Origin: Methanosarcinales archaeon
Lineage (GTDB): Archaea; Halobacteriota; Syntropharchaeia; Alkanophagales; Methanospirareceae
Length of the DNA: 10,479 bases
Assembly: GCA_003661125.1 (NCBI GenBank)
Contig: QMVO01000038.1
Coordinates: 1 to 10,479, forward strand
Reading direction: 5' to 3'
The notes under the pieces: model-generated
Databases searched by the model: none
The model's input: only the letters and a program-made list of their open reading frames with translations
What the model was told of the DNA's origin: nothing
In this document: piece after piece, positions 1 through 10,479 of the stretch
Layout of the letters: the number at the start of each line of letters is the position of its first letter
Position numbering within the stretch: position 1 is the stretch's first letter
Program-made: the position numbers and the translations under genes

Positions 1-8
1 ATAACAAA

Positions 9-347
9 ATGTCTAAACATGAGGAGCATGTATGGCTCGATACCGAAATTGTATTTTCATGTCCACTGTGTTCAACCGCATTCAGACTCCTTCATTGTGA
101 GCCAGATGGGAACCATAAATTCATATTGGATAAAGAGCAACGAGATGCAATAGTTGCAAGGCGCGTTACAGACAATATCGACACAACCTACGAATGGCTC
201 GCTATGAAATTCGGGATTACACGCAGTACGCTATTGCATGAGGTACTACGCAAAATAGATCAGGATAATAAAGTTCTGCAATGGGCTTCCAAAAAACTGA
301 ATATGTCCATTGATGATATTTTACGTGAGGTGAACAAATATGATTGA
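9..347 (+). CDS. putative DNA-binding regulator: N-terminal Cys/His zinc-finger-like segment (CPLC...HC...H) plus C-terminal helix-turn-helix-like segment (YEWLAMKFGITRSTLLHEVLRK); may be 5'-truncated by the window edge
   Basis: 112-codon ORF from the track. The reading frame stays open back to nt 3, so the true start may lie upstream of the window. No SD is visible before ATG 9. The Cys/His spacing and the HTH-like segment were read directly from the translation. Confidence 0.4.
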   Translation: MSKHEEHVWLDTEIVFSCPLCSTAFRLLHCEPDGNHKFILDKEQRDAIVARRVTDNIDTTYEWLAMKFGITRSTLLHEVLRKIDQDNKVLQWASKKLNMSIDDILREVNKYD

Positions 348-644: not shown

Positions 645-668
645 TTTTGTAAACGTTCCCTTTTTAGC
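645..668 (+). promoter_or_regulatory. copy A of conserved motif TTTTGTAAACGTTCCCTTTTTAGC; candidate promoter (upstream element plus TATA-like T5A) for the HicB-like gene
   Basis: One of four same-orientation copies of TTTGTAAACGTYCC(N)TTTTTA. It lies 3 nt after the tRNA and 50 nt before ATG 698. An additional TTTTATTTAA box lies at 682-691. Confidence 0.4.
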
Positions 669-697
669 AAAAATAAAACATTTTATTTAATTGAAAA

Positions 698-862
698 ATG
701 ACGACTAAAAAAATATCTATTGTTATAGAAAAAGATGAAGACGACGATTTTTTTGTAGCCGAATGTCCATCTCTTCCGGGATGTTATACACAGGGGGAAA
801 CATTGGGTGAAGCTTTGAAAAACATACATGAAGTGATTGAATTGTGTCTTGAAGAAATGTAA
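698..862 (+). CDS. solo HicB-like antitoxin N-domain protein (UPF0150 / RNase-H-like-fold HicB family), 54 aa, no DNA-binding C-domain and no adjacent hicA
   Basis: The ORF is below the length cutoff of the track and was translated by hand: [54 protein letters not shown]. The signature of HicB-family antitoxin N-domains (I.IEKDEDGGYVAE.PDLPGC.TQGDTLEEAL.N..EAIEL.LE) is matched almost position for position. The stop TAA (860-862) lies inside motif copy B. Confidence 0.6.
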
Positions 863-883
863 ACGTCCCCTTTTTAATTCCGC
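857..883 (+). promoter_or_regulatory. copy B of conserved motif (ATGTAAACGTCCCCTTTTTAATTCCG); candidate promoter for the 901-2427 gene; TATA-like CTTTTTAATT centred ~26 nt before ATG 901 (leaderless geometry)
   Basis: Sequence identity to copies A, C and D. It overlaps the stop codon of the HicB-like gene. There is no SD before ATG 901, which is consistent with a leaderless transcript. Confidence 0.4.
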
Positions 884-900
884 TTCCCGTTTTTTCAAAT

Positions 901-2427
901 ATGCCATACAAAACCAATGCAGACTTACCAAAGAGCATTCGCAATAGCTTGCCTGAACACGCGCAGACGATATTCCGCAAAGCTTACAATGCTGCTTCTG
1001 AACAGTATGGCACGGATGATGAAGCACGATTAAACAAAATCGCTTGGGCTGCAGTAAAGAAAATTTACGAAAAGGTTGATGACAAATGGGTACTCAAGAA
1101 AGGCAAGAAAGCAATAGCTGATGCCTTGGAAATACATCCGCATGATCACAGACCGTATATGGTAAATGATGATGGCACTACATATAATTCATTTGATTTC
1201 AATCCAATCTATACAGCCGAATACAATAGTGACGATTGGGTACCAGTCGCAAAAGTCGGTCAGGCTATGCGATTAGCGGGAAATTCTTCCGAGTTCCCTT
1301 CTATTATCTTTCCCACGGCAGAAGGGTTTAAAAAAGCTGTCGAATTGTTCAACGAACTTAAGGCGCCTGGATATGTGAATAGAAATCACAATCCTGACGA
1401 TATTATACCAGGTGCAAACATAACAGCGCTGAAATTTGAAGACCCTTTCTTATATGCGAAATTCAACGAGACCGGTATTGCTGCCATAAATGACGCAGTT
1501 AAAGTCGGCAGGAGTATAGAAGCTATTCCATTCAAAATCGACAAGGATCATCTTCTTACTGATTTCTATGTATCTGGGATTTCTGTGCTAACAGAAGGTC
1601 ATACTCCCAGTTGCACTCCACAAATGGGTTGTGCTGATATTCCCGACATATTGGCAATTTCTGGAAAGCCAAAAACTGCACCTATCGATTCTGAATGGTC
1701 ATTTCGTGCTGCAGACTACACACAAGAGCAATTAGAGCGTGCTTGTGTTTGGGTTGATACAAGCAAACCAAAGAGCGAGCGTACCAAAAATGATTGCAAA
1801 CTGCCTATTGCACGACCTGACGGTACGATTGTTTGGCATGCCGTTCGCGCTGCCATGGCGGCTCTATTAGGTGCGCGAGGCGGAGTCGATATACCAGCGA
1901 AAGATAGAAAAACAGTCTATAACAAACTGGTAGCTGCATATCGGTTATTCGATAAAGAGCCGCCAAAATTAAAAGGAGGTGATATGATGGGAGAAGAAGT
2001 AGTCTATACTGCTGAGCAGTTAGAAGAGCGCATTGCAACTGCAGTTGCTGAAGTAACGGAAAAACTCAATAATGAACACGCAGTTGCTCTTGCGCAAATA
2101 AAAGAAGAGAAAGAGAAAGAAATAGCTGAAAAGGAAAAGGAATGGCAAGAGCAATTAAACGCAAAAGCAAAAGAACTGGAAGAATTGAGAAATCAGATAG
2201 CAAACGAAAAACGCGAGCAGATCAAAGCCAAATTACAGATGGATGAGGAAGCGGCAAAATTGCTTGAATCGTTTGAAATCCCTCATCTTGATACACTGCT
2301 AAAACTTGATCTGCCAATCGGACAACAAAATGTAGGTGTTGCAGTCGCTGGTTCGCCAGCATCAGAATCTCAGCAAAAAGTCAAAAAAGTGGGGAGATGG
2401 GATGGTACAAAATGGGTAGAAGAATAG
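901..2427 (+). CDS. head-morphogenesis protein candidate: N-terminal ChaB-like domain (~75 aa), large central domain, C-terminal Glu/Lys-rich coiled coil (scaffold-like); possible in-frame internal start at 1984 with perfect SD
   Basis: 508-codon ORF. The N-terminus [32 protein letters not shown]...[19 protein letters not shown] matches the ChaB family (E. coli ChaB begins MPYKTKSDLPESV..LP.HAQDIYKEAFNSA...AWAAVKHEY). The C-terminal ~150 aa ([61 protein letters not shown]...) is heptad-like and charged. It sits immediately upstream of decoration-like and major capsid genes. Confidence 0.55.
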
Positions 2428-2446
2428 AAGGAGGTGATAAAAAAAC

Positions 2447-3337
2447 ATGAGTGCATTTTCCGGTATCCAAAAACCGACAAACAAAATTGTTGCCGTTGGT
2501 GACCCACTCGTAGCTGATAGAAAAGTGGGTGGCACAGTAACAAATATGAAACCCGGTAGGTTAGTCAAACGTGGCTCTACTGACTTCGATATTGCCATAG
2601 GAACCGCTTTCGATGTCTGTGGATGGTTGGGCTATGAGCAAGCGCATCCAAGTTATCGCCCAACTGATGTTGATACTGCATATGCCGCAGATGACATGGC
2701 GCCAGTGCTATACGGCGGCAAATTCGTTATCGTAGGCTCGTTAGTTAAGGGATGTGTTGTCACACAAGGCGAGTATCTTGCGAATTGGACGAATGGGCAG
2801 GTAATAGGTCCGATAGCAATGATGGAAGGCGGGTTAGCTTTAGGTATCCCGTTCGAGAAAGCTACCTCTGAGCAAACAACCTACATCGAATTGCCGGCTG
2901 ATATGGTTGTGAAGGATGTGATTGTGGACGTATCTACAAATGTCGCATCATCGCATATTGACATCGGTATCCTTTCAACCGAATCGGGTGGCGATGCAGA
3001 TGGGTTCCTCGATGGCGAATCATGTGCAGCCGCAGGTAAGGTGGAGCATAATATGGTCGATGCTACTGCCGCGAACAACACTCTTGGTGCTTTGCTTGTC
3101 GAATCCGACATCAAGAGTGCCGATGGGACAGCTCTATTTTACAGCGTGCCCAAACAACCAGGACATGTCTGCGATGGTACTGCAAAGACTATTACGTACA
3201 CTACTTCAGATCATGCTATCGAAGGAACGTTCTGGGTAGTTCTCGAAGCAGAAGGATTTAATATCGTAGGCAAAGCAGTGGAATCCGTAGATGCGAGTTC
3301 CGCGGCACAAGACATAATGCTTTTAAGCAGCATATAA
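2447..3337 (+). CDS. hypothetical head-associated protein (possibly decoration or accessory capsid protein), 296 aa
   Basis: The ORF lies 10 nt after GAAGGAGGTGAT (2427-2438). It is positioned between the scaffold-like gene and the major capsid gene. It is rich in Gly/Asp/Thr/Val, typical of beta-rich virion proteins. I recognise no specific family. Confidence 0.5.
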   Translation: MSAFSGIQKPTNKIVAVGDPLVADRKVGGTVTNMKPGRLVKRGSTDFDIAIGTAFDVCGWLGYEQAHPSYRPTDVDTAYAADDMAPVLYGGKFVIVGSLVKGCVVTQGEYLANWTNGQVIGPIAMMEGGLALGIPFEKATSEQTTYIELPADMVVKDVIVDVSTNVASSHIDIGILSTESGGDADGFLDGESCAAAGKVEHNMVDATAANNTLGALLVESDIKSADGTALFYSVPKQPGHVCDGTAKTITYTTSDHAIEGTFWVVLEAEGFNIVGKAVESVDASSAAQDIMLLSSI

Positions 3338-3361
3338 AAAGGAGGTGAGAAAAAATAAAAA

Positions 3362-4228
3362 ATGGCTGATGCAACAAATTCGTTAGAAGAGTTCTCGAAG
3401 TATGTAGATGCAGAATTGGTAGAACCGTTACGTGCAGTTCTGATAGGCCGTAAAATCGTGCCAGTAACGCCAGAGCATGGACTCGGTGTGTCCGCAGTCG
3501 AATTCCACAAGATAGTGGAGATGGGTGAAGGTGTGGTAACATACAGTTTCTCCGATGCTGGCGAAGACGAAATCAATATTACACCAACCACACTTAAACT
3601 GCCGATACACATAAAAGATTACAGAATAGACCGCAGGCATTACGAATCGTATCGCGAGAAAGGTATAAATATTGATAACAGTACCGCGCTGAGTGCTGCT
3701 TTCGTTGCTGCAAACAAAGAAGATGCGACAATCATTCGTGGCTATGCTGGTGATGGGTCTACATATGATATCAAAGGGCTATATGAAGGTGCCGGCAACA
3801 CATACGCAGGCAGCGATTTTGGTACCGCCGGTAATCCCACGGATGCAGTCGCAGGAGCAATGGATGCATTGGAACAGGACGATGTCCCCGTTTCAAGCTG
3901 CAATCTCATTCTACATCCGACACAGCGAAATGAACTTCGTGCACTTCGGAATAGCTATGGAATACGAGAAGAGCCAGAAGTATTGGAAATGCTGAATGGA
4001 GGGGCAATTTACAGCTCGAAAGCACTCACTGCCGGTACGGGATTGCTCATTCCAACAGTAAATTTGGCAAGACCGTATTTCGACTATTTCCTTGGTGTCG
4101 ATTGGAGGACTGAGCATGGTACAGAAAGCGAGCACCCTGATACAAGCGATTTGCATGGACGTGTATATAGCACAGGCGTATTGAGAATCAAGCATGATGT
4201 AGCGATCTGCACAATCACGGGGATATAA
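3362..4228 (+). CDS. major capsid protein, encapsulin-like (Linocin M18 / family-1 encapsulin shell) HK97 fold
   Basis: 288 aa. Colinear with Thermotoga maritima encapsulin. LIGRKIVPV..HGLGVSAV compares with LYGRKFVDVEGPYGWEYAA. LKLPIHIKDYRIDRRHYESYREKGINIDNSTALSAAFVAANKEDATIIRG compares with [50 protein letters not shown]. The C-terminal NLILHP...YFLGVDWRTEH...RVYSTGVLRI compares with YTLVINT...LILGQDLSIGY...RLFITETFTFQV. The length also matches, and AAAAGGAGGTGA lies upstream. Confidence 0.7.
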   Translation: MADATNSLEEFSKYVDAELVEPLRAVLIGRKIVPVTPEHGLGVSAVEFHKIVEMGEGVVTYSFSDAGEDEINITPTTLKLPIHIKDYRIDRRHYESYREKGINIDNSTALSAAFVAANKEDATIIRGYAGDGSTYDIKGLYEGAGNTYAGSDFGTAGNPTDAVAGAMDALEQDDVPVSSCNLILHPTQRNELRALRNSYGIREEPEVLEMLNGGAIYSSKALTAGTGLLIPTVNLARPYFDYFLGVDWRTEHGTESEHPDTSDLHGRVYSTGVLRIKHDVAICTITGI

Positions 4229-4244
4229 CTATTATTTGCTGAAC

Positions 4245-4481
4245 ATGGCAACAACAGAGACACGCAAGAAGAAGAAAGTGAAAGAGACAGAAAAAGTACC
4301 AGAAAAAACAAAAAAACCACGATTCTTAGAACTCGTCAAAGTACGCGCACTAATCAATATCTCGTTTGGCAAACGTCCCGGGTATGACCGTAAAAGGTAT
4401 CAGAGAGGCGAAATATTTTATCTCACTCGTGAGCTAATCAAAGAATTAGGCGAAGGACGAGCAGTAGAAATAGTGAAATGA
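4245..4481 (+). CDS. small Lys-rich basic protein (78 aa), function unknown; the track starts it at TTG 4236, but ATG 4245 is more likely
   Basis: The ORF is immediately downstream of the capsid gene. Its N-terminus KKKKVKETEKVPEKTKKPR is highly basic. Its stop overlaps the start of the next ORF (ATGA at 4478-4481), suggesting translational coupling. Confidence 0.45.
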   Translation: MATTETRKKKKVKETEKVPEKTKKPRFLELVKVRALINISFGKRPGYDRKRYQRGEIFYLTRELIKELGEGRAVEIVK

Positions 4482-4735
4482 CATTGTCAGAGGAACAGTT
4501 GGAACAATTATATCGCATCACAGTAGAGAATCGGCGCGATATTGAATGGATCCGAAACCGACTACAGCAGGGAAACAGTGTAATGGATTCTCTCAATCAG
4601 CGTCTGAAGATGATTGAATCGGAAAGCGCGTATCTCAGAGGCAGAATAGGTGCTTTTCTCATTTTCTTTGCTTTCGCAATCTCGCTCGGTTTACAGGGAC
4701 TGAATTGGATTTTCTCATACTTCTGGAGGTCATAA
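4478..4735 (+). CDS. small coiled-coil protein with C-terminal hydrophobic (transmembrane-like) segment, 85 aa
   Basis: The N-terminal 55 aa are heptad-like (EEQLEQLYRITVENRRDIEWIRNRLQQ...). The C-terminus GAFLIFFAFAISLGLQGLNWIFSYFW is a ~23-aa hydrophobic stretch. The start overlaps the upstream stop. Confidence 0.45.
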   Translation: MTLSEEQLEQLYRITVENRRDIEWIRNRLQQGNSVMDSLNQRLKMIESESAYLRGRIGAFLIFFAFAISLGLQGLNWIFSYFWRS

Positions 4736-4742
4736 AGAAAAA

Positions 4743-5165
4743 ATGAATCTGATTTCGGGAACATACACCGATATGGATATAGTGAAGAATAATTATATCC
4801 TCACTGAGCTATATGATACAGACACTCTTGACGCTCAAATTACGAATGCTGCGCAGGAAGCAAAACGCTGGGTAAACAATTTCCTTGGACGTCAAACAGA
4901 TTTCACGGCTGCCGAATTAGAAGAAGCAGAGAATGAATGCATTGTATCCGCAGCATGTTTGCGAACTGCATGCATTCTACAACAGAAACAGCAAGAACGA
5001 GGTAGTATCGCAGAAGAAACTTTACGCGATTGCAAAGAAGCAGAAAAAATTTTAGCTATTTGGATGAAAAATCATGGCTTAACCCCGCCAGACGAAATGA
5101 AAAAAAGCGGACGTATCAATCCTGAACCTTTATATGTTTATCCTGACGTAGAGTATGTCATATAG
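4743..5165 (+). CDS. putative head-tail connector / neck protein (gp6-like by position and size), 140 aa
   Basis: GGAGGT (4722-4727) lies upstream. The ORF is in the block after the capsid gene, where head-completion proteins usually sit. It is an acidic protein. The family assignment rests on synteny only. Confidence 0.4.
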   Translation: MNLISGTYTDMDIVKNNYILTELYDTDTLDAQITNAAQEAKRWVNNFLGRQTDFTAAELEEAENECIVSAACLRTACILQQKQQERGSIAEETLRDCKEAEKILAIWMKNHGLTPPDEMKKSGRINPEPLYVYPDVEYVI

Positions 5166-5290
5166 GAGGATGAAAATAGGAATAGGAAAAATGACAATTG
5201 ATAGTTACTTTTCATATCCCGAAGATGAACAGGAAAGAAGAGAATATATAGAATTGGAGAAAAAAAGGAAAAAGACAGAGGTAAAAGAAA

Positions 5291-5605
5291 ATGGATAATA
5301 GAGAAAAGAAACTGTTTTTAGAAGAATTGGATAAGCGTGCACGGCGATGGCAAAGAAAACGCGAAGATGCATTAAGCCGACTTGAACAACCAAAAAACGA
5401 ATACGAAAAGAAGAGAGCTGAAATTGATTTGTCTGTTGCAGAGGCTGCATTAAAACGCATTGAAAAACGTAAAGAAGAATTGGTAACACCAAAAGAGGAA
5501 AAGAGCGAAGAGAAGAAAGAAGAAAAGAAAAGAGAAGAAAAAAAGCATAAAAAGGAAGCAAAAAGACAATGGGAAGCGACAAAAAACATAAAAGAGAATG
5601 ATTAA
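5291..5605 (+). CDS. Lys/Glu-rich low-complexity coiled-coil protein, 104 aa
   Basis: GAGGT lies 8 nt before ATG 5291. The product is almost entirely K/E/R (EKRKEELVTPKEEKSEEKKEEKKREEKKHKKEAKRQWE). The stop overlaps the next start (ATGATTAA at 5598-5605). Confidence 0.45.
   Translation: MDNREKKLFLEELDKRARRWQRKREDALSRLEQPKNEYEKKRAEIDLSVAEAALKRIEKRKEELVTPKEEKSEEKKEEKKREEKKHKKEAKRQWEATKNIKEND
5491..5566. repeat. purine-rich (GAA/AAG)-like low-complexity tract inside the K/E-rich gene
   Basis: Direct inspection shows long runs of A/G with few C/T. This explains the spurious antisense ORFs 5205-5589 predicted in this region. Confidence 0.6.
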
Positions 5606-6029
5606 ATCTATCTTAGATGGAATCAAGCATATTCTCCAGAATGATGCAGACACAAAAGACGTGATCAAATCCTATTATTATCATCTTCCCGTATCAGGTG
5701 CACGCGACCCTTGCTGCATCCTCGGATATAATATCTCGTTTAATATAGACAAAGAACGTTCTTATCTCAATAGTTCAATACCTGGACGATTCTGGTCTGC
5801 TTCTGTTTCTATTTTACTTTTAGGTAGAGTTTATGAACGTACTCCTTCGCGGTTTGAAGCAATGATAGAAATTCTGGATAAATTACAAGGCGATGCATAT
5901 GAAGCGCTCACGAATGACAAAACACTAAACGGTACAGTCCTCAAGAGTCAACCTGTTTCTATACACAATATCTTCCTCGATGAATACTATGGATATGAGA
6001 TATCTATTGAGATCACAAAATCTGATTAA
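5598..6029 (+). CDS. putative neck / tail-completion protein (position-based), 143 aa
   Basis: The ORF is translationally coupled to the upstream gene. It is the last gene of the + strand neck block before the reverse-strand cassette. I recognise no family. Confidence 0.45.
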   Translation: MIKSILDGIKHILQNDADTKDVIKSYYYHLPVSGARDPCCILGYNISFNIDKERSYLNSSIPGRFWSASVSILLLGRVYERTPSRFEAMIEILDKLQGDAYEALTNDKTLNGTVLKSQPVSIHNIFLDEYYGYEISIEITKSD

Positions 6030-6385
6030 AAGTAGTCTTCAAGTTTCTTATTAATAGCTTTCATTTCTTTTTTATTTTTTATCTCTTCTCTCCACCGCTT
6101 ATTTAGTTTTTCCAATGCACCCGGCATCACGTTTGGCCAGAACATACCGAAAAATGCGAACCCCAAACAGATGAAAATAGTAGCTGGGTCTAAGCCCGAA
6201 TAAATAGCAGTAGGGACATTTGAATACTTTGGGTATTCTCCTCTGCCTTTGAAACTAAGAACCCTCTCATTATACTCAATGTTGATGCCTGATGCTTCCG
6301 CGAGCTTAATTATTTCTTCGTAATTGCCATGCCATGCTTGGAATGTAAGTTCGATCATACGGTCTTCAATCATTTTTCCTATCAT
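6026..6385 (-). CDS. hypothetical 119-aa protein with central hydrophobic segment (ATIFICLGFAFFGMFW), co-oriented and downstream of the RNA ligase gene
   Basis: From the ORF track. Its start context on the reverse strand is AGGAAAAATGATTGAAG. It shares a TTAA overlapping-stop arrangement with the convergent + strand gene at 6026-6029. Confidence 0.45.
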   Translation of the reverse strand: MIGKMIEDRMIELTFQAWHGNYEEIIKLAEASGINIEYNERVLSFKGRGEYPKYSNVPTAIYSGLDPATIFICLGFAFFGMFWPNVMPGALEKLNKRWREEIKNKKEMKAINKKLEDYF

Positions 6386-6477
6386 TTTTTACATTGCCTT
6401 TCAATTCTGCTAAACGACTTTTCCAGAAGTATTCACGAATTTTCATATCGTCTTTATCTACATCTATTTGTCCTTTA

Positions 6478-7608
6478 TCATTTATTTTCATTTTTTATGG
6501 CAAACTCTTCTGACAAATAACTATATATCTTACTTGCTAATTTTTTATCATATTCTTGTGCAAAATACCGCATACAAGTTCTTTTATCGTGAACAATATC
6601 TAAATTTTCTTTCAAATACTTCTCTTTTATCTCCGCTTTAAATCTTTTCTCAAAAGCTACTTCATTCATTATCTTGCGAATCCTCTCTTCTTGTTGTACT
6701 ATATCACTTTCTTGGAACTCTTCTAAAAGCAACGATTTAATCAAATCAAAAGAAGGATTGTCTGTTTCTTCATAGGCGTTTATCACTGTTATTAATATTG
6801 AATGTTTTGGTATTCTATTGTCTTTCCAGTGCACATCCAAAACCAAATCAGGCTTCGCTTTATATTGTATTGCACTTTCTGAGATGACATACCAAACAGT
6901 GCCTTCTATACCTCTTACGATTCCCTCCGTATCCTGAAATATGTTTTCATTAAGCCATTTTCTTAGTGCTTCGTATTCTTCAATGAATTCTATTTTAGAT
7001 GTAAAATTCTTTAAAAGCTTTGCAGTTCTCAATCCATTCAATTTGAGTTCTGTGGGAGGGACTATTTTCTTAGGGAATACACCGAATAGCGCAGCGCAGT
7101 CAAGTAAAGTATCATACTCTACTAATATCTTATTTCTTTTTCCGTATAGTTCAAAGCTGATGTTACATTTATTCTTTAATATTATCTCAGGTATCTCGGG
7201 ATATGTGTCAAGCATTTCGCTCCACAAACTCCGGAAGTTACCAAATCGGGATTCCTCTAACGTTGGTCGTAGTCGTGTTTTATAACTCACAAATTCATTG
7301 CCTTCTGCATCAAAATAAGTATATCCTAAGATATTTGTCCCATCTAACTTTTCATATACTTCTATCCTGTCTACATTTTCAAAATGAATATAATTACCGT
7401 CCCTATCAAAAGGATATACCATCTTTGGTGTAGCCCATACATATTGAGGACATTCTTTATCATTTACATGGGTGATGTAAAGCATCCCATAGGTTGAATG
7501 TCCATCTCGTCTGATATATCCCTTTAATGTATTATTATTAAAGGTATCTCTCACTTCAAACTCTTCTACATTCTTGGAACTGATATTAAAAGGATATTCA
7601 GTCATCAT
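6478..7608 (-). CDS. ATP-dependent RNA ligase-like covalent nucleotidyltransferase (Rnl2/Rnl3-like), 376 aa, with ~50-aa N-terminal extension and ~120-aa helical C-terminal domain
   Basis: Nucleotidyltransferase motifs occur in the canonical order and spacing. Motif I is VYEKLDGTN with K87 (T4 Rnl2 has EKIHGTN; Rnl3 is the KxDGxN type). Motif III is ISFELYGK with E153, 66 aa after motif I. Motif IV is TEGIVRG with E228. Motif V is QYKAK with K250/K252, 22 aa after motif IV. The reverse-strand SD GAGGAG lies 5 nt before ATGATG. Confidence 0.6.
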   Translation of the reverse strand: MMTEYPFNISSKNVEEFEVRDTFNNNTLKGYIRRDGHSTYGMLYITHVNDKECPQYVWATPKMVYPFDRDGNYIHFENVDRIEVYEKLDGTNILGYTYFDAEGNEFVSYKTRLRPTLEESRFGNFRSLWSEMLDTYPEIPEIILKNKCNISFELYGKRNKILVEYDTLLDCAALFGVFPKKIVPPTELKLNGLRTAKLLKNFTSKIEFIEEYEALRKWLNENIFQDTEGIVRGIEGTVWYVISESAIQYKAKPDLVLDVHWKDNRIPKHSILITVINAYEETDNPSFDLIKSLLLEEFQESDIVQQEERIRKIMNEVAFEKRFKAEIKEKYLKENLDIVHDKRTCMRYFAQEYDKKLASKIYSYLSEEFAIKNENK

Positions 7609-7706
7609 TTCTCCTCATTCACTGCCTTGTTCACCACTAATATTTAGTCAGTTAGCATAAAAAGGTTTTCGGTCTTCTGGTTAGAACCATAAGTTCTTAC
7701 TATAAA

Positions 7707-7739
7707 ATTTGTAAACGTCCCCTTTTTATTTCTATTCCG
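7707..7739 (+). promoter_or_regulatory. copy C of conserved motif (ATTTGTAAACGTCCCCTTTTTATTTCTATTCCG); candidate promoter for the major tail gene, in the divergent intergenic region shared with the RNA ligase gene
   Basis: The TATA-like CTTTTTATTT lies ~50 nt upstream of ATG 7780. A leadered transcript would carry the SD AAGGAGGAAG. The 21 nt core is identical to copy B. Confidence 0.4.
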
Positions 7740-7779
7740 ATAAACTTCAACCGAAGAAAAAAGGAGGAAGAAGCAAAAA

Positions 7780-8694
7780 ATGGCAAAAATGCCGATTTCT
7801 GGTGCGAAGGCGATAGAATACGTCGCCGAGGATTCAATAGGGAGTGGTACTTACGGAGTAACACCAGACAATCCAACGATGAAATGGCTCGGATTAGTAA
7901 ATCCATTCACTCCACACATAGCCAAAGGGTACGAAGAAGTACGTTATCTCGGTGCTTACGATGCAACAGATATGTTGCAAAAAATGCGAAATATGAAAGT
8001 GGATGGAGAACTAACCGCATCACTGACTTACAAACCGCAGGATTGGGATTTCATGCAGTATATCACAGGCAGCACTACCGGTCTATCAGACTCTGTCGAT
8101 TCATTAAGCATCGCGCAGTACACAGATGAGAAATGGATATTGTATAAGGGATGTATGCTCACGAGATGGGAACTGACCTTGCCAAAAGAAGGAATTGCAA
8201 CCGTAGATGTGGATATGACAATAGGAGATGTAGCAGACCCGACTGGCACTGATTTCATAGGTACGGGCTCGCATGCATCAGAGAGTACAGATGACCCGTT
8301 CCTGTGGGAAGACATAACAGGACTTAAGATGGATTCTAATGATCCGCCTACTACAGAGATTGCGCATTCTGTCGGCGATCTGACACTCAGCATAACAAAT
8401 GAAGTCGAATTACCGAAAGATATTAGCTCAACGAAATGGACGCGAGCTGAAGGTGCAGTCGTAAAGAAGAGGGACATATCGGTCTCGATGGAATTGACCT
8501 GGGTTGATATTGATTCCTTTTTCACATTAGTGAAAAACGGCACGAAACAAAATTTGCAGTTCACACTCGGTGGTAAGACATTTACTATTAAGGGACTCAT
8601 TCCGCCTGAATACAATCCAGAGATTACACCCGATAACTTTATTGGTGAGACGGTTACATTCCTAATGGACCAGCCAGACTTGACAATAGCGTAG
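7780..8694 (+). CDS. putative major tail protein, 304 aa
   Basis: A strong SD (AAGGAGG) is present. The ORF is located directly upstream of the G/GT chaperone pair and the tape measure gene, the canonical siphovirus order MTP-G-GT-TMP. Its Thr/Asp/Gly-rich composition suggests a beta-rich protein. Confidence 0.5.
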   Translation: MAKMPISGAKAIEYVAEDSIGSGTYGVTPDNPTMKWLGLVNPFTPHIAKGYEEVRYLGAYDATDMLQKMRNMKVDGELTASLTYKPQDWDFMQYITGSTTGLSDSVDSLSIAQYTDEKWILYKGCMLTRWELTLPKEGIATVDVDMTIGDVADPTGTDFIGTGSHASESTDDPFLWEDITGLKMDSNDPPTTEIAHSVGDLTLSITNEVELPKDISSTKWTRAEGAVVKKRDISVSMELTWVDIDSFFTLVKNGTKQNLQFTLGGKTFTIKGLIPPEYNPEITPDNFIGETVTFLMDQPDLTIA

Positions 8695-8806
8695 CTTTAT
8701 ATATACCTAGTGTATAGCGGATTATATATGAGTGCCAGGGTGGGGCATAGGTTAAATTCTATGCGCAGGAAGGGAAAGGCACCATAAAACAAGGAGCAAG
8801 AACAAA

Positions 8807-9229
8807 ATGAGAACGAAAAAGATAGGTAATTACGAGTTTAAATTCTATTCTCGTGATGAAATTACATACGGTGCGATGCAGCGTGTCAAACGATTTTTGA
8901 TGACACGCGTGCTCGCAATGATGAAAGGCGCGGGCAAAGAAGAAGAAATATTCGAGCGGATGTTTGAGAACGCCGATAAACTCGCGGAATATATTCAGCT
9001 TGTACAGGAAGAAGAAGAAACAAATGATATCATTGCTATCATGCTCGTGACGAACAAGGACTACGATGAAATTGCAGATTTACCGATTTCAGTCATTGAA
9101 GCACTCAAGGAAGAAGTAAAAACAGAGGCGGGCGGTGATATTGCGGGTTTTTTGAATGGCTTAGGTATCAGTATCAGCTCGTATCTCGAAACGATGTTCA
9201 CGGAAGAGAAGGGCAAGAAAAAGATGTAA
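8807..9229 (+). CDS. tail assembly chaperone (gpG-like), 140 aa, acidic
   Basis: SD AAGGAG is present. The position between the major tail and tape measure genes is canonical. The ORF ends in a Lys run (KGKKKM) containing an A-rich slippery tract, and the -1 frame is open for 84 more codons. Confidence 0.6.
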   Translation: MRTKKIGNYEFKFYSRDEITYGAMQRVKRFLMTRVLAMMKGAGKEEEIFERMFENADKLAEYIQLVQEEEETNDIIAIMLVTNKDYDEIADLPISVIEALKEEVKTEAGGDIAGFLNGLGISISSYLETMFTEEKGKKKM

Positions 9230-9476
9230 TCAAATCTTTTCTCCCCAAGCCCGCTGGGCAATATGCTGAAGAAATAGCTCAGTGGCTAAAAGGAAAGAGC
9301 ATAAAAGACGACCGCATAATCGAATACACGCTCATGTCTCATTTCGGCTGGTCGGAGAAGACCTTATATGAGACTTCCCTGAATACTATTCAAAATGCAT
9401 TATTTATTTTAGAACGGATTGCAAAGCACGAACAGTTAATTCTTTCCAGATCGCGTAAAAATAAACAGCATTTGTA
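8807..9476 (+). CDS. predicted G-T fusion product made by -1 programmed ribosomal frameshift at AAG AAA AAG (9215-9223), extending to TAA 9474-9476
   Basis: The -1 frame has a stop at 9136-9138 and is open from 9139 to 9476. It overlaps the last ~30 codons of G and continues 83 codons past the G stop. The heptamer G_AAA_AAG lies at the overlap. This G/GT architecture is conserved in tailed viruses. Confidence 0.45.
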
Positions 9477-9500
9477 AACGTTCTATTTTAAACTTTCTAC
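9468..9500 (+). promoter_or_regulatory. copy D of conserved motif (CATTTGTAAACGTTCTATTTTAAACTTTCTAC); candidate promoter for the tape measure gene; TATA-like TATTTTAAAC centred ~28 nt before ATG 9518 (leaderless geometry)
   Basis: It shares TTTGTAAACGTTC with copy A. There is no SD before ATG 9518. The motif contains the TAA stop of the GT extension. Confidence 0.35.
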
Positions 9501-9517: not shown

Positions 9518-10479
9518 ATGCCGGGAAATATTGTGGAGATTATTATAAAAGCAAGAGATTTAGCTTCCTCTGCATTTCGGCAAGTACAAAATCAAATAGC
9601 GACAACTAAAACTATTGGAGTTTCTGTTGCTTCCAAACTTAAGAATGTGGGGAGAGCACTTTATTCTACCGTAAATACATACTTTATTCCTGCAGCTCTC
9701 GCGATTGCAGGAGTTGCATTTGCTATTAAAGGACTTATCGATGCGTTTGGTGATTTTGATATGGCAATGAAAGGTGTGCAAAAGACAACAGGCATGTCAG
9801 AAGAAGAAATCGACGCCCTTGGCGAAGATTTTAAAGAAATGTCTACTCAAATTCCGCTTTCTGCAAAAGAACTCGCTGATATTGGAGCAATTGCCGGTCA
9901 ATTAGGTATTCAAGGTTCTGATAATATTACTACTTTTACCGAGAGTGTAGCAAGAGTTTCAATTGCTCTAGATATGACAGCAGAAGAGGCGGCAACATCA
10001 ATGGCAAAAGTCAGTAATGCTTTTGGGCTACCTGTTACTCAAGCTGATAATTTAGCATCTTCAATTAACACACTCGAAAATACTACTGCAGCAAAAGGCA
10101 GGGATATTATTGCATCTATGACTCGGATGGCAGCATCCGGGGCTCAATTAGGCTTAACTGCTGACGCTGCAGCTGCACTCGCTGCTACTCTCATCGCAAT
10201 GGGAATGCCTGCCGAGCGTGTTGGAACTCGACTCAATACAGCTTTTACACAGATGGCAAAAAATGTTGGGGATATGGCAGCGCAAATGGGGATGTCAGAA
10301 GAGGAATTACGAGCATGGATAGACAGAGATGTAATGGGGGCTCTCAATGCATACATAGAAATGCTGCGCGAAACTCCGAGTGAAATCGATAGAATAACAA
10401 TGGCAAATGAAGTTTTTGGTGCTGTTGGCGGTAAAGCAATTGCATCATTGGCAACAGGTTACGATGATTTACAAACGAA
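9518..10479 (+). CDS. tail tape measure protein, TP901-family type core, N-terminal 320 codons (continues beyond the window)
   Basis: Translated by hand: no stop is reached before the window end. There is an N-terminal hydrophobic helix (YFIPAALAIAGVAFAIKGLIDAF). The characteristic TMP core is present: FKEMSTQIPLSAKELADIGAIAGQLGIQGSDNITTFTESVARVSIALDMTAEEAATSMAKVSNAFGL...GRDIIASMTRMAASGAQLGLTADAAAALAATLIAMGMPAERVGTRLNTAFTQMAK. Confidence 0.85.
   Translation, partial: MPGNIVEIIIKARDLASSAFRQVQNQIATTKTIGVSVASKLKNVGRALYSTVNTYFIPAALAIAGVAFAIKGLIDAFGDFDMAMKGVQKTTGMSEEEIDALGEDFKEMSTQIPLSAKELADIGAIAGQLGIQGSDNITTFTESVARVSIALDMTAEEAATSMAKVSNAFGLPVTQADNLASSINTLENTTAAKGRDIIASMTRMAASGAQLGLTADAAAALAATLIAMGMPAERVGTRLNTAFTQMAKNVGDMAAQMGMSEEELRAWIDRDVMGALNAYIEMLRETPSEIDRITMANEVFGAVGGKAIASLATGYDDLQT

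Follow-up and report, generated by a model that had tools for sequence, protein, structure and literature searches.

A conserved repeat with the layout of an archaeal promoter precedes structural gene blocks in a group of probable archaeal tailed viruses

The closest described counterparts of the element reported here are the repeats of halovirus HF2 and other Haloferacalesvirus members; for HF2, promoter activity and start sites have been shown experimentally, and the TATA box begins at -26 (PMC8707807). Those repeats resemble the present element in being repeated, intergenic, TATA-bearing and carried by an archaeal tailed virus, in being conserved in sequence and genomic position among related viruses, and in heading long transcripts, that of the morphogenesis module included (PMC8707807). 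In sequence, however, the two are not similar. HF2 has repeats of 58 and 29 bp with conserved blocks reaching downstream to the start site, and mutations in their BRE and upstream alpha block left activity unaffected (PMC8707807), whereas the unit described here measures 21 bp and its invariant 11-mer precedes the TATA box. The hosts also differ, being haloarchaea for HF2 and probably Methanosarcinales here, and the present motif, known from sequence alone, is conserved across much deeper protein divergence.

Activator-dependent promoters such as those of TFB-RF1 in Pyrococcus, EarA in Methanococcus, the Sulfolobus ara-box and Ptr2 share with our element a non-consensus BRE beside a good TATA box and a conserved element upstream of or over the BRE (PMC5512572, PMC5937170, PMC5569661), and recruitment of TFB or TBP is the mechanism that we also propose. 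Those are single cellular operons served by known proteins, whereas ours is a multi-copy viral element with a putative reader that is unrelated to TFB-RF1 or EarA, and activation is here a proposal. In crenarchaeal viruses, SvtR (SIRV1), AvtR (AFV6) and F55 (SSV1) are likewise small viral ribbon-helix-helix proteins with sites at structural-gene promoters and a role in temporal control (PMC5569661). Their known sites consist of inverted or tandem repeats, imperfect in sequence, whose distance from BRE and TATA box varies, and they act mainly by repression and oligomerisation; our 11-mer, in contrast, is asymmetric, present singly and always in the same register with the TATA box, and it belongs to tailed viruses of Euryarchaeota. 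Class-specific promoters of phages and the stoperators and start-associated sequences of mycobacteriophages are also short, asymmetric, of one orientation to transcription, module-wide and conserved across related phages, as is our repeat. These systems are bacterial and are read by sigma factors, phage RNA polymerases or repressors, and stoperators are not tied to a promoter element, whereas every copy of our motif is fused to a TATA box.

The window, by which we mean the whole 10,479-nt stretch of DNA analysed, contains four matches to TGTAAACGTYC, all on the + strand (648-658, 858-868, 7710-7720 and 9473-9483), against 0.32 expected by chance; none of 200 shuffles reached four. The 20-mer TTGTAAACGTYCCCTTTTTA was found at the same four places with 0, 1, 0 and 3 mismatches, respectively (0.01 expected), and a repeat search returned the motif as the top direct-repeat family of the window. 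A weight matrix derived from 32 sites on ten contigs scored the four copies at 30-36 bits and everything else on both strands of the window below 8 bits, revealing no weaker copies. The conserved unit comprises the 11-mer, two variable bases and TTTWWAT. The first-pass annotation had reported four repeats of the same orientation upstream of gene starts at 698, 901, 7780 and 9518, and we confirmed this, with all copies on the + strand and 50, 43, 70 and 45 nt between motif start and ATG. Some details needed correction: the ranges given were longer than the 21-bp unit, copy 2 begins with ATG and not TTG, and the 3' half of copy 4 is TCTATTTTAA.

Copy 1 (648-668, +) has the core TGTAAACGTTC at 648-658, the spacer CC and the T-rich box TTTTTAGC at 661-668; it begins 6 nt past a tRNA-Gln (UUG) gene (568-642, +) and precedes a HicB-like/UPF0150 gene of 54 aa (698-862, +). 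Copy 2 (858-878, +), with the core TGTAAACGTCC (858-868), spacer CC and box TTTTTAAT (871-878), lies ahead of the head operon (901-6029, +), which encodes a ChaB-domain protein (901-2427), a 296-aa protein (2447-3337), an HK97-fold major capsid protein (3362-4228) and a series of small, tightly packed or overlapping genes up to 6029; the Shine-Dalgarno sequence AAGGAGGTGA stands ahead of both 2447 and 3362. Copy 3 (7710-7730, +) has the same core TGTAAACGTCC (7710-7720), spacer CC and the box TTTTTATT (7723-7730), and is followed by the tail tube gene (7780-8694, +). Copy 4 (9473-9493, +), the most diverged of the four, combines the core TGTAAACGTTC (9473-9483) with the spacer TA and the box TTTTAAAC (9486-9493) and precedes the N-terminal part of the tape measure gene (9518-10479, +), which runs past the window end; the relatives examined have no promoter at the equivalent position. 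As had been noted earlier, the TAA within two copies doubles as a stop codon, at 860-862 for the HicB-like ORF and at 9475-9477 for a -1 frame chaperone extension.

Conservation was then analysed in ten related virus contigs (141 kb), in which the 11-mer stands exactly 2 nt before a TATA box (TTTWWAT) at 32 full sites. All 32 lie between genes and on the gene strand, with 0 on the other strand and a shuffle mean of 0.005; the scan of relatives thus returned only intergenic copies of one orientation upstream of genes, and not the genic or two-way pattern that would have spoken against a promoter. As the sites were gathered by a core match with at most one mismatch, there is some circularity in the invariance of positions 1-11, which the alignment defined by orthology and the gap in the weight-matrix scores help to offset. 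Upstream of nine orthologous tube genes, whose proteins share 47-72% identity, the sole invariant block is TGTAAACGT.C..TTT..A, with a largely conserved Shine-Dalgarno block further downstream. The motif is likewise conserved ahead of the ChaB-domain head gene in L021, V158, L164 and L165, at the same 43-nt offset in L021 as in window copy 2, and exact 11-mers occur even in V158 and L154, where identity to the window capsid protein is down to 41% and 36%, respectively. T14, T15, T16 and A19, positions that played no part in site collection, were present in 32 of 32 sites, and the spacer was always 2 nt long and variable in sequence. The distant relatives L022 and L028 keep (A)ACGTYC alone beside the TATA box. 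A genome scan with a stricter, window-specific pattern gave chance matches in bacteria only; the element may originate from the host.

The distance between motif and start codon followed a simple rule. At 15 of 15 sites with an ATG 42-50 nt from the motif start (mode 43-44) a Shine-Dalgarno sequence was absent, at 15 of 16 sites with an ATG at 61 nt or more it was present, and no site fell at 51-60 nt. In archaea, the centre of the TATA box lies ~27 nt before the transcription start, and promoters carry a proximal element at ~-10 (PMC5316973); the 32 sites show an A-rich peak at positions 33-35, that is, at ~-10. Counted from the first T of the motif, the spacing and the Shine-Dalgarno dichotomy would place the transcription start ~43-45 nt downstream, at a distance of ~27 nt from the TATA centre, in keeping with archaeal geometry. 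Judged from this geometry, the mRNAs would be leaderless or carry a short Shine-Dalgarno leader. For copy 1, a start at ~691-694 would give a 4-7 nt leader and a near-leaderless mRNA for the HicB-like gene (ATG 698). Leaderless mRNAs are predicted for the head operon and the tape measure gene, whose ATGs at 901 and 9518 follow the motif start by 43 and 45 nt, respectively, and lack a Shine-Dalgarno sequence, and a start at ~G7753 would give the tube gene (ATG 7780) a 27-nt leader with GGAGG at 7763-7767. The earlier proposal of leaderless mRNAs at 901 and 9518 and a Shine-Dalgarno-led one at 7780 agrees with the dichotomy.

These results bear on whether the motif could instead be a bacterial promoter, read by a phage-specific sigma factor or RNA polymerase. 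Some capsid homologues are binned with bacterial MAGs (Acetivibrionales, Deferribacteraceae), and strong GGAGG sites are equally typical of Firmicutes phages. However, the box lies 23-27 nt, and not 7 nt, from the leaderless ATGs; the spacer from TTGTAA to TATAAT would be only 10 nt; and pairs of sigma-70-like hexamers were rarer than in shuffles (22 vs 27.6), none of them fitting the motif. The window capsid protein is identical to RLG34229.1 from a Methanosarcinales MAG, a homologue with 50% identity is present in the Methanosalsum natronophilum genome, and the relative V158 encodes PCNA and an RFC-like clamp loader. A bacterial host is therefore scarcely credible to us, and these viruses are probably an uncultivated group of tailed viruses of methane-cycling archaea, with Methanosarcinales as the probable host.

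Could the T-run and the TAA of the motif mean that the repeats mark gene ends, as terminators or as signals for RNA processing? T5 runs, at which archaeal RNA polymerase can terminate, are found in the window copies, copy 1 directly follows a tRNA gene, and in five cases the gene upstream takes its stop codon from the motif (window 858 and 9473, L021:623, V158:816 and L164:369). In the relatives, however, the T-run is replaced by TTTATAT, with three Ts only; no gene on the same strand lies upstream of copy 3 or of its counterparts in relatives; a terminator scan was negative at the sites; and V158 has a separate hairpin and T-tract ahead of the motif at 13837. As such a function would also leave the fixed ATG distance and the Shine-Dalgarno dichotomy unexplained, we regard it as highly improbable. 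Only slightly better is the case for recombination or mobile-element sequences, that is, 'linker' repeats at module boundaries or the ends of an inserted element. The genomes are mosaic, the motif tracks the tail and not the capsid lineage, and several copies have a foreign cassette immediately before them (window 6026-7608, homing-endonuclease genes in L164, and L150 777-1013). Yet the 32 copies are all direct with zero inverted pairs, no transposase or integrase is adjacent, and the copies are conserved in synteny and have the geometry of promoters; any recombination at such shared promoters could be a by-product and not what they serve for. This explanation is very unlikely.

Taken together, it is probable that the four repeats are one promoter cassette, used by the host archaeal RNA polymerase and heading structural (late) gene blocks. 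An archaeal TATA-box promoter with a virus-specific upstream half had been suggested from the first reading of the window, and every in-silico test that we ran (archaeal virus, conservation at orthologous sites, spacing, orientation, contrast with the reverse-strand cassette) supported it. The 3' half would be the TATA box bound by TBP, and the 11-mer, at ~-44 to -34, would cover the site of the BRE, the TFB recognition element, plus ~5 nt further upstream. The doubt raised earlier that the 5' half is a canonical BRE was well founded, as the 11-mer occupies the BRE position and is not A-rich. A likely promoter on the reverse strand of the window (7656-7673, -) offers a comparison: it has the BRE ACCGAAAAC (7673-7665) and the TATA box CTTTTTATG (7664-7656), followed by GAGGAG at 7616-7611 and an ATG at 7608. 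It is of the canonical A-rich methanogen type (ACCGAAAAC plus TTTTTATG; extended consensus quoted as MRCCGAAAAG, PMC5512572), and the TGTAAACGT element is absent from it; the reverse-strand gene had been said to lack the 5' half of the motif, and this is so, with the canonical BRE CCGAAAAC in its place.

The distribution of sites was examined in V158, a 49-kb relative of which 45.2 of 48.95 kb were read. Each of its five full sites stands ahead of a structural gene (a probable portal gene, the ChaB head gene, the tube gene or one of two large fibre-like genes), and no full site occurs in the ~24 kb with PCNA, the RFC-like loader, a methylase and other non-structural genes. The motif is thus confined to structural (late) modules in V158, which suggests class-specific rather than general recognition. 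This restriction counts against the 11-mer being a BRE of unusual length and high affinity for which host TFB would suffice without a dedicated regulator, at strong constitutive promoters whose identity is kept by selection for strength. Such a reading would account for the fixed 2-nt TATA spacing in 32 of 32 sites, expected if the element is read within the TBP-TFB-DNA complex, for the G at position 8 (purines are preferred at the corresponding BRE position, -6), and for the retention of (A)ACGTYC alone in L022 and L028; extended BREs of 9-10 nt (MRCCGAAAAG) are known from strong Methanocaldococcus promoters (PMC5512572). Against it, the 11-mer is not A-rich and has C in 30 of 32 sites at BRE position -3, for which A is the chief determinant (PMC5512572), canonical A-rich BREs are present at other likely promoters of these viruses, and the BREs of cellular promoters are only loosely conserved (PMC5316973). 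We consider a long BRE possible but rather unlikely.

A candidate reader of the 11-mer lies at the left edge of the window. The ORF at 3-347 (+), which the contig edge truncates, represents the C-terminal half of a protein of ~200-230 aa with a Zn-ribbon and a probable ribbon-helix-helix domain; the earlier label of Zn-finger/HTH protein holds for the Zn-ribbon part but not for the HTH. The ribbon-helix-helix assignment is weak, since only a 62-aa ORF of V158 passes the Pfam threshold, CopG was the top match in a PDB search at a non-significant score, and a fold search gave no match. Homologues adjoin the head-operon promoter in four of the five motif-bearing viruses with this region visible (window, V158, L164 and L165); the 660 nt visible upstream of the L021 promoter hold none, and none was found in three relatives without the motif (L022, L025 and L028). 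The earlier guess that the protein at 9-347 could be the regulator gains some support from this co-occurrence, and the protein is a plausible candidate for reading the 11-mer. The HicB-like/UPF0150 domain is fused to a ribbon-helix-helix domain in L164. In V158 the ribbon-helix-helix genes are themselves part of the late region, a location that fits poorly with a role as pure activator.

Alternatively, a repressor, for example the ribbon-helix-helix protein in a role like that of SvtR of SIRV1 or of a lysogeny repressor, might bind the 11-mer as an operator, cover the BRE and keep all structural promoters silent until late infection or induction. In archaeal viruses, most ribbon-helix-helix regulators repress, and the promoter that SvtR targets is that of a structural gene (PMC5569661); here the site overlaps the BRE position, a ribbon-helix-helix gene adjoins the head promoter, and the short ACGT/AACGTT dyad core could, in our reading, suit a ribbon-helix-helix dimer. 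However, an operator overlapping the BRE needs no single-base TATA register across 32 sites and deep divergence, promoters that lack a good BRE apart from this site would stay weak after de-repression, and an integrase or lysogeny module was not seen in 45 kb of V158, as far as its partial annotation goes. Repression is thus an unlikely role. We tentatively favour, at a little under an even chance, an adaptor encoded by the virus, which would bring TFB to a BRE that is weak by itself and for which the Zn-ribbon/ribbon-helix-helix protein is the candidate.

The element described here is clearly a new instance, while the kind of viral control signal is one already known and not a new type of system. 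The repeat, its conservation and orientation, its restriction to structural modules and its spacing and Shine-Dalgarno logic are observed features, while promoter activity and the start sites are predicted from them, and the candidate reader is much less certain than the promoter itself. Within the proposed cassette, the 11-mer would be read in fixed register with TBP and TFB, as a specificity element that would mark and co-regulate all structural operons of this virus lineage.

We searched the window for the 11-mer TGTAAACGTYC and found four copies, all on the + strand, at 648, 858, 7710 and 9473. Chance would give 0.32 copies, and none of 200 shuffled sequences reached four. A 20-mer version of the motif (0.01 expected) marked the same four places, and the copies constitute the largest direct-repeat family of the window. 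Scoring with a weight matrix gave 30-36 bits for the four sites and less than 8 bits for everything else on both strands; the window contains four clear copies and no degenerate ones. The first-pass annotation had reported four same-orientation copies upstream of gene starts, and this was confirmed, with each site lying 43-70 nt before an ATG. Copy 1 (648) lies 50 nt upstream of the ATG at 698 of a HicB-like protein of 54 aa, copy 2 (858) 43 nt upstream of the ATG at 901 of a ChaB-domain protein, which is the first gene of the head block, copy 3 (7710) 70 nt upstream of the tail tube gene (ATG 7780), and copy 4 (9473) 45 nt upstream of the tape measure gene (ATG 9518).

It had also been noted that in two copies the TAA of the motif doubles as the stop codon of the upstream gene, and we could identify both reading frames. 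The HicB-like ORF stops at the TAA within the motif, and the -1 frame extension of the tail assembly chaperone, entered via a slippery site, terminates at the TAA of copy 4. The chaperone gene (8807-9229) carries the canonical slippery heptamer GGGTTTT at 9145-9151, and no stop interrupts its -1 frame between 9139 and the TAA at 9475-9477. A product of programmed frameshifting of the G/GT type is likely, and its stop codon falls within copy 4 of the putative promoter. The 112-nt spacer 3' of the tube gene (8695-8806) opens with a perfect TATA-like TTTATATATA (8697-8706) and has no 11-mer; its predicted RNA fold was non-significant (z = -1.6), and it could hold an internal promoter of the chaperone gene at 8807. 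At the other end of the window, a tRNA-Gln ends 6 nt before the start of copy 1; the register of its acceptor stem is ambiguous as to whether it is of the archaeal type, and it was left out of the host evidence. A ChaB domain (Pfam E = 4e-20; region 901-1100) opens the first head-operon protein, whose N-terminal 10 residues are near-identical in two related virus contigs, L021 and V158.

Relatives were collected by three routes, using the capsid protein, the tube protein and an improved DNA pattern. In L021, the closest capsid relative (67% identity), the motif was found 43 nt before the orthologous ChaB-domain gene, just as in the window. Exact copies were present in all of the tube-protein relatives (47-72% identity; L150/151, L152, L153, L154, V158, L164 and L165), including V158, which was found in IMG/VR via tube-protein alignment, and in L155, found in IMG/VR with the improved DNA pattern. 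Three further capsid relatives (L022, L025 and L028; capsid identity <=58%) showed no motif and no weight-matrix matches, and a search for a repeated intergenic motif of their own found none. The capsids of V158 and L154 are only 41% and 36% identical to that of the window, yet exact 11-mers are present in both. Judged from these comparisons, the motif tracks the tail lineage and not the capsid lineage. In L022 (6366-6405, taacgtcaatttataag) and L028 (1343-1380, ggacgttcttaaatataa), (A)ACGTYC stands directly before a TATA box at leaderless distance to the orthologous ChaB-domain gene, and may represent either a diverged, shorter element or chance.

Across ten contigs (141 kb) we counted 32 full sites, against a mean of 0.005 in shuffled sequences. 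The genome-wide check proposed in the first-pass annotation, namely that copies be intergenic, upstream of an ORF and in one orientation, was run on this set. All 32 sites lie on the gene strand, and they fall between genes or share no more than a stop codon with the gene upstream, with the exception of the site at 6984 in L164, which falls within an automated gene call whose start we judged to be mis-called. Up to nine contigs share orthologous sites, which stand before the tube, ChaB-head, 85-aa and fibre-like genes. When the sequences preceding nine orthologous tube genes were aligned, TGTAAACGT.C..TTT..A was the sole invariant block within unalignable surroundings, with a largely conserved Shine-Dalgarno block farther downstream. 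The ends of a dispersed mobile element, which the first-pass annotation had named as a possible origin of such repeats, are an unlikely explanation, as the copies are all direct and occupy syntenic positions.

Exact-pattern scans of viral contigs, species-representative genomes and JGI metagenomes with the T5 version seen in the window, a pattern that misses TTTATA versions, gave single chance-level matches in unrelated bacteria and phages, and INPHARED yielded neither a DNA, capsid-protein nor tube-protein match nor any multi-copy hit to the motif. A literature search for the motif found no description, its sequence giving only unrelated primer matches. Within the window, GGCAAACGTCC at 4368-4378 matches the core with two mismatches, has no TATA box, and lies within ORF 4236-4481, 110 nt before the gene at 4478. 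This match is probably due to chance, but it could be a remnant; the orthologues of gene 4478 in L152, L154 and L155 have their own full promoter 44 nt upstream, whereas gene 4478 of the window starts within an ATGA that it shares with the stop codon of the gene before it.

The 32 sites allowed the anatomy of the 21-bp cassette to be described. Positions 1-11 are TGTAAACGTYC, an invariance partly built in by the way the sites were collected, and the spacer at positions 12-13 has a variable sequence but a constant length. T14, T15, T16 and A19 are found in all 32 sites, positions 17-18 hold only A or T, and TTTWWAT occupies positions 14-20 in 32/32. The earlier reading of the T-rich 3' half as an archaeal TATA box is borne out by the relatives, in which it is a textbook methanogen box (TTTATATA, TTTATAAT or TTTAAAA). 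A transcription terminator, suggested by a T5 run following a stop codon, is unlikely, since the run is not conserved (TTTATAT in relatives), no hairpin is seen at the sites, and copy 3 has no same-strand gene upstream.

In archaeal promoters, the 8-bp TATA box is centred ~27 nt upstream of the start and the BRE ~33 nt upstream, with an A/T-rich proximal element near -10 (PMC5316973). The centre of the box at motif position 17-18 therefore predicts a start at 44-45 and places an A-rich peak, seen at positions 33-35, at about -10. The 17 leader-bearing sites show this peak as well (12, 15 and 12 of 17), position 44 is enriched in A, and position 43 is without G, in keeping with a proximal element and with a pyrimidine/purine pair at -1/+1. 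The coding context provides an independent test of the predicted start. At 15 sites the ATG of the next long ORF lies 42-50 nt from the start of the motif (mode 43-44), and none of them has a Shine-Dalgarno sequence; at 16 sites the ATG lies at 61-89 nt, and 15 of these do. No site falls between 51 and 60 nt. This is the pattern expected if the RNA begins at about +44, where the ATG would be either at the 5' end of the RNA or far enough downstream to accommodate a ribosome-binding site. The leaderless ATGs are ~27 nt from the centre of the TATA box, which would put the box at the canonical distance from the predicted start. The proposal of leaderless mRNAs at 901 and 9518 and a Shine-Dalgarno-led ATG at 7780 agrees with this division, the three ATGs lying 43, 45 and 70 nt from the motif. 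Leaderless mRNAs make up ~16% in one member of the Methanosarcinales (PMC5378194).

A bacterial sigma-70 promoter is unlikely on counts and on spacing. Pairs of sigma-70 hexamers are not enriched (22, against 27.6 in shuffles), the spacer within the motif would be 10 nt where 16-18 is needed, and the box lies 23-27 nt from the leaderless ATGs where a -10 element would be expected at ~7. The orientation bias would fit sites resembling the stoperators of mycobacteriophage cluster A, which are asymmetric, lie in one orientation throughout transcribed regions and are independent of promoter elements. Unlike these, every functional-looking copy of the cassette is fused to a TATA box, and bare 11-mers are rare, lie within ORFs and occur on both strands.

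We then considered what occupies the BRE position. The 11-mer spans about -44 to -34, which covers this position and ~5 nt farther upstream. The equivalents of -6 to -1 read G-T-Y-C-N-N, in which the G at -6 fits a BRE; position -3 is C in 30 of the 32 sites, not A. As the first-pass annotation had proposed, the 5' half is not a canonical BRE, whose sequence is purine- or A-rich, a purine occupying position -6 and A position -3. The annotation had also described the reverse-strand gene as having a TATA box without this half, and the promoter of that cassette indeed carries instead a canonical BRE, ACCGAAAAC, with CTTTTTATG. The ACCGAAAAC element is close to the extended Methanocaldococcus BRE, MRCCGAAAAG (PMC5512572), and V158 has GAAAAC with TTTAAATA before one non-structural gene. 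A-rich BREs are thus present at other likely promoters of these viruses.

A non-consensus BRE with an adjacent conserved element is the hallmark of activator-dependent archaeal promoters (TFB-RF1, EarA, ara-box; PMC5512572), and the cassette shares it, with its conserved element at and just upstream of the BRE position. The 2-nt register between 11-mer and TATA box never varies, which argues that the reader of the 11-mer works within the TBP/TFB complex. We therefore favour a role of the 11-mer as a recruitment element, read by a dedicated adaptor or by TFB itself. That it is instead a repressor operator is less likely.

A candidate reader is encoded at the edge of the window. The ORF at 9-347 (DRN97_02985, annotated 'partial') is the C-terminal half of a protein of ~200-230 aa cut by the contig edge; it carries a zinc ribbon of the form CPxC...H..P.G.H and, C-terminal to this, a probable ribbon-helix-helix domain. 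The homologue of 62 aa in V158 passes the Pfam RHH_1 model (26.4 bits, cut-off 20.5), several other members fall just below the threshold, and CopG was the top but non-significant match in a PDB search; the ribbon-helix-helix assignment thus has moderate support. Structure prediction reached a pLDDT of 49 from the single sequence and 70 from an 8-sequence alignment, and Foldseek found nothing in the PDB below E = 0.5 with the model. A word-indexed protein search with the ORF matched only itself. The family is very small (8 representatives among 1.8 billion proteins, ~156-264 aa), and its members combine a Cys-rich N-terminal region with a zinc ribbon and a C-terminus resembling a ribbon-helix-helix; they include the window ORF (3-347), P0098-P0104, and ORFs at 74-571 in L165, 2-373 in L164 and 450-820 in V158. 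The window, V158, L164 and L165 each encode a homologue just upstream of the head-operon promoter, whereas L022, L025 and L028 have none. In this small sample the family occurs in 4/5 motif-bearing viruses versus 0/3 without the motif, a suggestive association that makes it a candidate cognate reader. In L164 a HicB-like domain forms one protein with the ribbon-helix-helix part; the window encodes the HicB-like domain separately (698-862).

That this viral protein, and not host TFB, reads the 11-mer is a tentative proposal that we consider rather doubtful at present. Such a reader would dock beside TBP in the fixed register and bring TFB and RNA polymerase to late promoters that have no usable BRE. 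If true, this would be a dedicated late-promoter specificity system of archaeal tailed viruses, a counterpart of the late sigma factors and activators of bacteriophages; we know of no such system described for tailed viruses of methanogens or methanotrophs.

The assignment of the cassette to late genes comes from V158 (IMGVR_UViG_3300024262_000003), a 49-kb contig reconstructed from IMG/VR, of which 45.2 of 48.95 kb was read. Two of its five full sites precede large fibre-like genes, and the other three precede the ChaB head gene, the tube gene and a probable portal gene that comes directly after the gene of the large terminase; ~24 kb of replication and modification genes contain none. The sole bare 11-mer in the latter region is on the opposite strand, within an ORF and without a TATA box. 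This structural-only placement indicates that the cassette marks structural operons, which are presumably late.

The window, an entire 10,479-bp NCBI contig binned with a Methanosarcinales MAG, is a fragment of a head-tail virus with an HK97-fold capsid protein (RLG34229.1), a tube protein and a tape measure protein. The contig occurs in samples ERZ1742239 and SRR6823441, and relatives occur in the ZHAN22-2 samples. Records from Methanosalsum natronophilum include a capsid protein with 50% identity, and the genes of V158 include those for a large terminase subunit, a PCNA homologue (above the Pfam threshold) and an RFC-like AAA+ clamp loader. Binning alone is weak evidence for the host; together, the capsid records, the genes of V158 and the absence from INPHARED point to an uncultivated lineage of archaeal tailed viruses. 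In V158 the large terminase subunit is apparently interrupted by an intein-like insert, as judged by eye, and an HNH endonuclease, DNA methylases and a tRNA-like sequence are also present (V158 features at 41626-44151, 28082-28837, 37209-37826 and just upstream of 38609 in our own coordinates). With PCNA and the clamp loader, this amounts to a rather full archaeal replication toolkit for a virus of 49 kb.

The capsid of the window is 55-58% identical to those of L022, L025 and L028 and 36-41% to those of V158 and L154; its tube protein is 57-60% identical to those of V158 and L154 and ~25% to those of L022 and L028. The mosaicism is strong: the head and tail modules have separate histories, with common promoters at their junctions. 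Between the head-completion genes and the tube promoter lies the reverse-strand cassette (6026-7673), which is low in GC (0.32-0.35) and encodes a 376-aa protein weakly matching an RNA ligase, besides two small ORFs (119 aa and 41 aa). Relatives carry other inserts at the same place, namely NUMOD3 homing-endonuclease genes in L164 (5306-6938), a minus-strand ORF in L150 (777-1013) and ORFs in L165 (8476-9817), and insertions seem to have a hot spot just before late promoters.

Among documented cases, the intergenic repeats of halovirus HF2 come closest; promoter activity was shown for them, and the genus conserves both their sequence and their position (PMC8707807). Like these, the cassette is intergenic, lies in the native orientation of the downstream genes (32/32) and is kept in position and sequence among relatives. 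Unlike the HF2 class I/II repeats, it lacks the motifs TCTTTAAGTC, CGTCTNNTAGAG and CCCTTTAC (PMC8707807), and the resemblance is, from these sequences, one of function and not of descent.

The 21-bp cassette is identical across viruses whose capsids are ~40% identical. To our knowledge, almost nothing is known of the timing of gene expression in tailed viruses of methanogens and related Methanosarcinales, of which there are few isolates. The cassette serves as a marker for annotating late operons and true start codons, leaderless ones included, in metagenomic contigs of this lineage, and could supply short candidate promoter parts for genetic work in Methanosarcina. To archaeal transcription biochemistry it presents a testable target, the reader of a non-A-rich element at the BRE position, and points to a candidate viral regulator. 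Promoter-bearing intergenic repeats, so far demonstrated in haloviruses, would thereby extend to a second, unrelated group of archaeal tailed viruses.
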